DNA of 64,000 bases, from positions 4,672,001 through 4,736,000 of the forward strand of contig CM000152.2 in NCBI GenBank assembly GCA_000004695.1, in the 5' to 3' direction. Below the pieces are notes generated by a model. That model made no database searches. It was not told where the DNA came from and worked only from the letters and a program-made list of their open reading frames with translations. A program made the position numbers and the translations under genes. The DNA comes from Dictyostelium discoideum (taxonomy: Eukaryota). Shown in pieces: positions 52,671 through 52,808 of this stretch (the first letter of the stretch is position 1; each line of letters begins with the position of its first letter).

Positions 52671-52808
52671 TAAATTAAAATTGTAATTATAAAAATAATA
52701 ATAATAAAAAAACAAAAATACTAAAAAAGTTGTATAGGTAAATAAAATTATTTACCTATACAACTTTTTTATTATTATTATTTTTATAATTACAATTATA
52801 AATTTATT
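52671..52808. repeat. Intergenic inverted repeat / palindrome of about 138 bp, with a perfect core (23-bp arms, 2-bp centre at 52721..52768).
   Basis: The core AAAAAAGTTGTATAGGTAAATAA|AA|TTATTTACCTATACAACTTTTTT is perfectly self-complementary. Flanking arms TTGTAATTATAAAAATAATAATAATAAAAAA and TTTTTTATTATTATTATTTTTATAATTACAA also pair, with one 12-nt insertion in the left arm. It lies in the divergent promoter region between the NADAR and ArfGAP1 genes. Confidence 0.8.

Follow-up and report, generated by a model that had tools for sequence, protein, structure and literature searches.

A near-perfect palindrome in the NADAR-ArfGAP promoter spacer of Dictyostelium discoideum AX4, probably born from a recent template switch

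The divergent promoter region described here lies in a 64-kb stretch of D. discoideum AX4 DNA (the window) that has a GC content of about 20%, poly-T runs, (AAT)n tracts and poly-N/Q-rich proteins. Two genes face away from each other at this site (Table 1). The spliced product of the NADAR-domain gene has 153 aa, is 100% identical to D. discoideum AX4 DDB_G0281625 and matches PF08719 at 122 bits. On the other side, splice reconstruction restores the ArfGAP motif (PF01412 at 125 bits), and the annotation of a second AX4-type assembly places a 608-aa gene at this position. The two Pfam matches bear out the divergent NADAR/ArfGAP context that a sequence-only reading of this DNA had proposed. Between the genes lies a spacer of 690 bp with the palindrome inside; the ATG of the NADAR gene is 229 bp away from the nearest palindrome edge, that of the ArfGAP gene 322 bp from the palindrome end at 52808. 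Three blocks of the spacer are conserved out to Dictyostelium citrinum (52554-52567, 52868-52885 and 53005-53049). The palindrome is located between these blocks, in the most indel-rich, least conserved and microsatellite-rich part of the spacer.

Table 1. Coordinates of the palindrome components and of the two flanking genes in the window.
Feature	Position	Strand	Remarks
NADAR-domain gene DDB_G0281625, exons 52128-52440 and 51898-52046	51898-52440	-	PF08719
Left arm, outer part, AATTGTAATTATAAAAATAATAATAAT	52679-52705	+	ancestral; template of the inverted copy
Stretch of 17 nt without right-arm counterpart, AAAAAAACAAAAATACT	52706-52722	+	internal loop of the hairpin
Left arm, core, AAAAAAGTTGTATAGGTAAATAA	52723-52745	+	ancestral, unique, G/C-bearing
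Palindrome centre AA and switch point	52746-52747	+	
Novel right arm, inverted copy of 50 nt	52748-52797	+	absent from single-arm genomes and D. citrinum
Pre-existing sequence ATAAATTTATT	52798-52808	+	extends the stem base, outside the copy
ArfGAP gene, exons 53130-53326 and 53505-55134	53130-55134	+	PF01412

The palindrome had been placed at 52671-52808, and there it is indeed found. An inverted-repeat scan returns perfect arms of 24 nt (52722-52745 and 52748-52771) around a 2-nt centre made of A52746 and A52747. The core of 48 bp had been called perfectly self-complementary, which is correct for the arms but not for the central AA, where A is opposed to A. For the loop of a hairpin this mismatch makes no difference. 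The left core, 52723-52745, and 52748-52770 are exact reverse complements of each other, and so are 52771-52797 (27 nt) and the left outer arm, 52679-52705, whose (AAT)3 microsatellite state is specific for this allele. Pairing of the outer arms had also been noticed before, over 25 nt (52681-52705 with 52771-52795), and falls inside this 27-nt register. Core and outer arm are separated on the left side by the stretch at 52706-52722, which is bordered by runs of A7 and A6, is unpaired in the folds and has a placement that is ambiguous within the A-runs. Its length is 17 nt and not 12 as counted earlier; the lower count used the T6 run twice, in the core and in the outer arm. Weaker pairing reaches out to about 52669 and 52808, where ATAAATTTATT (52798-52808) pairs imperfectly and by chance with 52669-52678, leaving a bulge in the folds. 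With respect to simple repeats, assessed without a formal dustmasker run, the 23-nt core is unique and G/C-bearing, while about 12 nt of the outer tract are (AAT)n.

Folding of this segment predicts one long hairpin on either strand, as the sequence-only reading had expected. For 52660-52820 (161 nt), the predicted RNA energy is -52.8 kcal/mol for the forward and -54.3 kcal/mol for the reverse strand, with z values of -14.7 and -11.9, respectively, and none of 200 dinucleotide shuffles was as stable. Divided by the folded length, this is about -0.33 kcal/mol/nt. As DNA, the palindrome folds at -42.8 kcal/mol (z = -12). The predicted stem of 50-60 bp is almost pure A/U and is closed by a loop of 2-4 nt, with the 17 unpaired nucleotides as an internal loop. 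No other hairpin-type palindrome of the 64-kb window is as long, the next best having arms of 19 nt, and in 60 composition-preserving block shuffles the longest perfect arm did not exceed 15 nt. Counting only palindromes with 13 nt or more per arm and two or more G/C, there are three in the 64 kb, and none was found in about 94 kb of related dictyostelid loci except for the orthologue in the second AX4-type assembly. Other palindromes of the window lie at 28782-28819 and 31431-31461. The earlier view that such a structure is not expected by chance is upheld.

To place the palindrome in its phylogenetic context, orthologous loci were retrieved via the NADAR protein. These comprise the second AX4-type assembly (L001), two further D. 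discoideum isolates (L007 and L008), two genomes of D. cf. discoideum (L005 and L009), two of D. citrinum (L002 and L003), one of D. firmibasis (L004) and one of D. purpureum (L006). The ArfGAP-NADAR arrangement is found in all loci except those of D. firmibasis and D. purpureum, and as ArfGAP is the upstream neighbour of NADAR in neither of the two, both were left out of the polarisation. Between L001 and the window, about 12 kb contain only 6 substitutions and 9 indels, and the 226-bp segment with the palindrome is identical. Since L001 is an independent assembly, the palindrome is not an assembly artefact. Apart from the window, the right arm occurs in L001 alone; L007, L008, L005, L009, L002 and L003 lack it, so that the two-armed structure is missing from six related assemblies with the same gene pair. 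In L007, L008, L005 and L009 the left arm is followed by a common junction, AAATAAAG|TGTAA, which reads on as AAATAAAG-TGTAA-ATAAA, and an inverted copy is lacking. The same four genomes carry the GTTGTATAGG core; GTTGTATAGGTAAATAAA is identical in L007 and L008 and has diverged in L005 (GTTGTATAAATAAATAAA) and L009. All single-arm relatives also have the 17-nt stretch, as ACAAAAATACT or ACAAAAATATC. In the D. citrinum locus neither the palindrome nor a recognisable core was found. The (AAT)n tract has roughly 8, 5, 0 and 45 units elsewhere and differs from the three units of AX4 in every other genome, and in L005, compared with the other genomes, 100 bp are deleted just right of the arm.

A neighbour-joining tree from 2.2 kb of neighbouring coding sequence gives the order ((((win,L001),(L007,L008)),L005),L009), followed by D. 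citrinum and then by D. firmibasis. Coding divergence from the window is 2.7-3.1% for L007/L008, 3.9% for L005, 5.0% for L009, 10% for D. citrinum and 13.7% for D. firmibasis. The single-arm genomes are hence paraphyletic and share one common junction, and thus the single-arm state is ancestral and the palindrome derived: one gain of the right arm on the AX4 branch suffices, where the reverse would take at least three identical losses. Palindromes are unstable and prone to deletion, and L005 does have a deletion to the right of the arm, so an ancestral palindrome whose right arm was lost in the other lineages has to be weighed. We regard this as very improbable. It would need the at least three losses to be identical and precise, or else a tree that the 2.2 kb of coding sequence contradicts, and D. 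citrinum has no palindrome either. Moreover, the bases GTGTAA of the single-arm alleles are missing from the palindromic allele, which marks a replacement and not a simple deletion, and the right arm fits the microsatellite state of the left arm that is specific for AX4.

The alignment of the palindromic allele with L007 and L008, in which the flanks match base for base, shows that 51 bases (52747-52797) stand in place of the ancestral GTGTAA. Of these, 50 repeat the adjacent left arm as its reverse complement, starting 2 nt from the switch point. The remaining one, A52747, which is G in all single-arm alleles, is not accounted for by the copy, whereas A52746 is ancestral. Compared with the left arm of AX4 itself, the right arm is identical at 27 of 27 and 23 of 23 positions, while only 15 of 27 positions agree with the outer arm of L007/L008, and the copy reproduces the (AAT)3 state of AX4. 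Because the right arm matches the left arm of its own allele, the source of the copy is the AX4-type allele itself. The perfect identity suggests that the copy is young, or else that some correction process has held the arms identical; hairpin-templated correction could in principle keep them perfect irrespective of youth. The copied tract is broken by a skip of 17 nt between the A7 and A6 runs, which needs a second misalignment or a later deletion. These 17 nt had been read as an insertion in the left arm, a view that has to be reversed: as all single-arm relatives possess the stretch, it is the copied right arm that skipped or lost it. At the other end, ATAAATTTATT is homologous to ATAAATTATTTT and ATAAAATATTTT in L008 and L007, so that 52798-52808 lies outside the copy. 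A52747 and an additional T within ATAAATTTATT call for further small events. A slightly different breakdown of the replacement is conceivable, so that the switch points can be placed only to within a few bases.

The same alignment bears on the suggestion that the palindrome is a foldback transposon or a MITE. Long terminal inverted symmetry and AT-rich flanks would suit such an insertion, and some miRNAs of D. discoideum derive from small repetitive elements (thug-S). However, the empty-site alleles of four relatives retain one complete arm, the right arm is a copy of the left arm of this very allele, and the left end of the palindrome continues into ancestral sequence. A search with the core 19-mer, allowing up to three mismatches, found only the two arms themselves in the 64-kb window, and an exact search with the core found no further copy in about 94 kb of related loci. 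Inspection by eye of 52660-52810 and of the single-arm alleles revealed no direct repeat at the arm ends that could be a target-site duplication. A metagenome scan with an 18-mer gave 72 matches, considered as potential family members; their flanks are random (at most 33 of 80 identities) and an inverted partner is lacking, so they were dismissed as chance matches. The proposal of a foldback or MITE element is abandoned on these grounds, and we give it hardly any credence.

The replacement is best described as an inverted duplication. The ancestral-type alleles, folded over the same segment from anchor to anchor, are no more stable than shuffled sequences (z = +0.9 to +3.4), while the derived allele reaches z of about -9 to -10. 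Thus, the derived allele is structured, the ancestral types are not, and the hairpin arose in one step. Template-switch models describe such an outcome, a complex replacement in which a single event, even where there was no prior similarity, yields both a reverse-complement repeat and a perfect hairpin (PMC10710096). The palindrome is quite probably the product of one recent template-switch mutation during replication, on the branch to AX4-type D. discoideum. In the proposed sequence of events, synthesis across the NADAR-ArfGAP spacer would arrive at ...GGTAAATAAA (52746), where the nascent strand might fold back on itself or jump to the opposite strand. About 50 nt that had just been passed would then be copied as reverse complement. 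During this copying, the nascent T-run may slip between two A-runs, leaving A6 (52723-52728) for A7 (52706-52712), so that 17 nt are skipped; we infer this slip from the fact that the missing 17 bases are bounded by A7 and A6. The strand would finally rejoin the original template a few bases downstream, with GTGTAA swapped for 51 new bases, and a single step would turn an unstructured AT-rich spacer into a near-perfect palindrome of about 130 bp. As to the enzymology, the switch may have been within or between strands, and the 17 nt may have been skipped during the event or lost after it. The ancestral allele contains a tandem GTAAATAAA-GT-GTAAATAAA and a mini-palindrome AAATAA-A-TTATTT, which could have nucleated the fold-back. 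The earlier idea of a replication-slippage product was essentially right in pointing to a replication error, but the mechanism is most likely a template switch, with slippage confined to the 17-nt skip.

As a mutation, the AX4 palindrome is of a known kind, of which it provides a new and very clean case. It shares with published template-switch mutations (TSMs) the complex replacement in which new bases are the reverse complement of the immediately adjacent sequence, the appearance of a perfect hairpin in one step from a sequence without significant prior structure, and the restriction to one lineage with polarisation by outgroups (PMC10710096). Differences concern size, continuity and context. 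TSM-born miRNA-like hairpins have been called at 30-55 bases (PMC10710096), and the AX4 event, whose copied tract measures 50 nt and whose stem has about 50-60 bp, falls at the upper end of this range. Its copy has the internal 17-nt skip, implying an extra slippage step. The locus is also extremely AT-rich and in part microsatellite, and TSM screens tend to remove such contexts; from the published screen, events with more than 50% simple-repeat overlap are excluded (PMC10710096), a class to which the AX4 tract does not seem to belong.

Inverted-repeat expansion by template switching has been reported as frequent in yeast promoters, and in the GRE2 promoter such an expansion raised expression and changed the phenotype (PMC13100816). 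The AX4 palindrome resembles the Saccharomyces GRE2/ERT1 cases in being an inverted repeat in a promoter region that was enlarged by template switching and is polymorphic among close strains or species (PMC13100816). With this precedent, and a location within a 690-bp divergent promoter spacer, a lineage-specific cis-regulatory change has to be considered, in which the inverted duplication of the GTTGTATAGG block and the destruction of the conserved GTGTAA altered the expression of NADAR and/or ArfGAP in AX4-type strains, by a dyad-symmetric site or by a cruciform or nucleosome-excluding structure. The retention of AAAGTTGT...ATAAAGTGTAA across the discoideum complex, up to a coding divergence of 5%, could be a footprint which the duplication altered. 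However, the yeast study centred on events within confirmed transcription-factor binding sites and an effect on GRE2 expression was shown (PMC13100816), while the AX4 segment looks weakly constrained. The surrounding segment varies hugely in length, with (AAT)n from 0 to about 45 units and the 100-bp deletion in L005, and the tolerance of such large length changes points to weak constraint. A counterpart of the core could not be recognised in D. citrinum, and no transcription-factor motif was identified. We consider a regulatory change of this kind unlikely. A conserved regulatory element it cannot be, as it is absent from close relatives and located in the least conserved part of the spacer.

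A further candidate function is that of a newborn gene for a hairpin RNA or miRNA, which would be transcribed from the promoter region that the two genes share and then be processed by DrnB/RbdB to RNAs of about 21 nt. The miRNAs of Amoebozoa are almost all species-specific, young ones arise from unusually long, near-perfect hairpins, and this long, near mismatch-free architecture has been proposed as a mark of newly evolved miRNAs (PMC11014262). Dictyostelium miRNAs turn over very fast. The AX4 palindrome is similar to the young precursors dfi-mir-1190 as well as ppo-mir-1226 (PMC11014262) in being a long, nearly mismatch-free, species-specific intergenic hairpin of a dictyostelid, and thus fits the picture of a young amoebozoan miRNA. 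The predicted hairpin is strong on both strands, its -0.33 kcal/mol/nt lies below the -0.2 kcal/mol/nt that is used as the criterion for D. discoideum miRNA hairpins, and its stem of 50-60 bp is within or near the 30-55-base range of TSM-born hairpins (PMC10710096). D. discoideum miRNAs are, in addition, mostly intergenic with transcription start sites after T-runs, and T-runs are abundant here.

Several observations make this candidate unlikely, too. AX2/AX4-type libraries should carry the palindrome, yet its arm sequences are missing from the catalogues: none of eight different 10-mers from both arms, in T and U spelling, occurs in Liao 2018, neither in the main text nor in the supplement, which holds hairpins as plain searchable letters, and four spellings of the core arm are absent from three supplement files of Edelbroek 2024. 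No Rfam match was obtained in a gathering-threshold scan of the whole window or in a scan of 52400-53150 at E <= 10, and the window contains no tRNA genes. Catalogued chromosome-3 miRNAs at 3.66 and 3.74 Mb are about 1 Mb away from this locus at about 4.80 Mb. Moreover, the stem is nearly pure A/U with a minimal loop of 2-4 nt and an internal loop of 17 nt, whereas catalogued ddi hairpins are richer in G/C (-0.52 to -0.60 kcal/mol/nt). In contrast to the young precursors, the AX4 hairpin stands outside the catalogues searched. It is positioned between the two divergent core promoters, and its transcription is hypothetical. T-runs occur everywhere in this genome and are therefore not evidence of a promoter. 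For this reason a T26+CTG motif at 52530-52559, looked at as a start site of the pri-miRNA type, was rejected as well; it seems to be nothing else than the complement of the A-rich NADAR leader. The most far-reaching version of this candidate, that a template switch in the AX4 lineage made a perfect hairpin in an active divergent promoter which is already transcribed and diced, with the "before" allele persisting in wild isolates, appears quite improbable to us.

In its physical properties the palindrome recalls palindromic AT-rich repeats (PATRRs) and other cruciform-prone palindromes, since it is AT-rich, near-perfect, has almost no spacer and gives a stable predicted DNA hairpin. Human PATRRs are several-fold longer. 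Breakage or rearrangement, in contrast to PATRRs, has left no sign at the AX4 locus, and the palindrome is identical in the two assemblies of the lineage. Taken by itself, the palindrome is probably a neutral, lineage-specific structural variant, which presumably serves no dedicated function at present and, as far as the fold predictions go, most likely has the latent ability to adopt a cruciform or, as RNA, a hairpin. Neutrality is argued here from absence of evidence only, namely from the indel-prone part of the spacer in which the palindrome is found, its absence from close relatives and the lack of an Rfam match and of a catalogued small RNA.

Small and probably neutral as the variant is, its value is that of a template-switch case which is fully polarised and unusually clean: the ancestral allele, the source of the copy and the gain of a hairpin in one step are all visible, and this in the reference strain of a model organism. 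For practical work it follows that the AX4 spacer is not representative of wild D. discoideum, and that a palindrome specific for the reference may hinder PCR, cloning and short-read assembly of the DDB_G0281625-ArfGAP spacer. If the hairpin were a nascent miRNA after all, the locus would offer a natural pair of before and after alleles for testing how a small-RNA gene originates de novo. The process that has been proposed for new miRNA hairpins in primates and for inverted repeats in yeast promoters thus also operates in the AT-rich Dictyostelium genome.

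Three non-coding blocks in the spacer between the divergent NADAR (DDB_G0281625) and ArfGAP genes are kept as far as D. citrinum, where coding divergence is about 10%. As promoter elements proper, these blocks are stronger candidates than the main palindrome that lies in the same spacer. Their positions are listed together with those of further repeats.

Conserved spacer blocks and inverted repeats in the window and at the D. firmibasis NADAR-orthologue locus (L004)
Feature	Position	Sequence	Arms and spacing
Conserved spacer block 1	window 52554-52567	TTCTGTTATTTTT	
Conserved spacer block 2	window 52868-52885	TGTCGC..AACTGA	
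Conserved spacer block 3	window 53005-53049	ATCGTTAGTGTG.ATAATAT.AATAACA..AAGTTAT	
Inverted repeat, D. firmibasis	L004 5353-5411	TACTCGTAGGAAGAGCAA / TTGCTCTTCCTACGAGTA	perfect, 18 nt, G/C-rich; loop 23 nt
Second-longest palindrome in window	28782-28819	A12CCATTAT / ATAATGGT12	perfect, 38 bp; spacer 0
Third palindrome in window	31431-31461	AAAAAAAAAAATGGA	arms 15 nt; spacer 1 nt

D. firmibasis does not keep this gene order: upstream of its NADAR orthologue, across a spacer of 1.3 kb, lies a gene of RSE1/CPSF_A type. The inverted repeat inside this spacer gave only a sub-threshold match to MIR5229 in Rfam (score 22.5 bits, threshold 80; E = 0.1), and a search of the supplements of the D. discoideum miRNA catalogue (Edelbroek 2024) did not find it. 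Within the window, the second-longest palindrome is flanked by the convergent ORFs 27397-28710 (+) and 29246-30712 (-) and hence occupies a 3'-3' intergenic position; it may have arisen by another template switch, or it may serve both genes as a bidirectional 3'-end element.

Intron 1 of the ArfGAP gene (window 53327-53504) is of low complexity over almost its entire length, with some 30 A residues in a row and then about 25 AAT units, and it interrupts the ArfGAP domain inside the conserved GVHLSFVRS motif. The ArfGAP orthologue of Tieghemostelium lacteum, P0121, has 1024 aa and bears the annotation 'putative alpha-amylase'; PF00128 and PF01412 are both present in it, and it is probably a fused gene model.

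Over whole loci, the two isolates labelled Dictyostelium discoideum, L007 and L008, show 2.7-3.1% coding-DNA divergence from the AX4-type window, and about 6% when all sequence is counted. This distance nearly equals that of the assemblies labelled 'cf. discoideum' (3.9-5.0%), so that at the NADAR-ArfGAP locus the name D. discoideum spans deeply diverged lineages. Among these close relatives the (AAT)n tract in the left arm, the ancestral half of the main palindrome (tract at window 52690-52712 and orthologous positions), is hypervariable, with about 3 AAT units in AX4, 8 in L007, 5 in L008, and 0 and about 45 in the D. cf. discoideum assemblies L005 and L009, respectively. Because its length varies to this extent, the tract shows the left-arm portion of the spacer to be under weak constraint, and it is usable as a fast clock.
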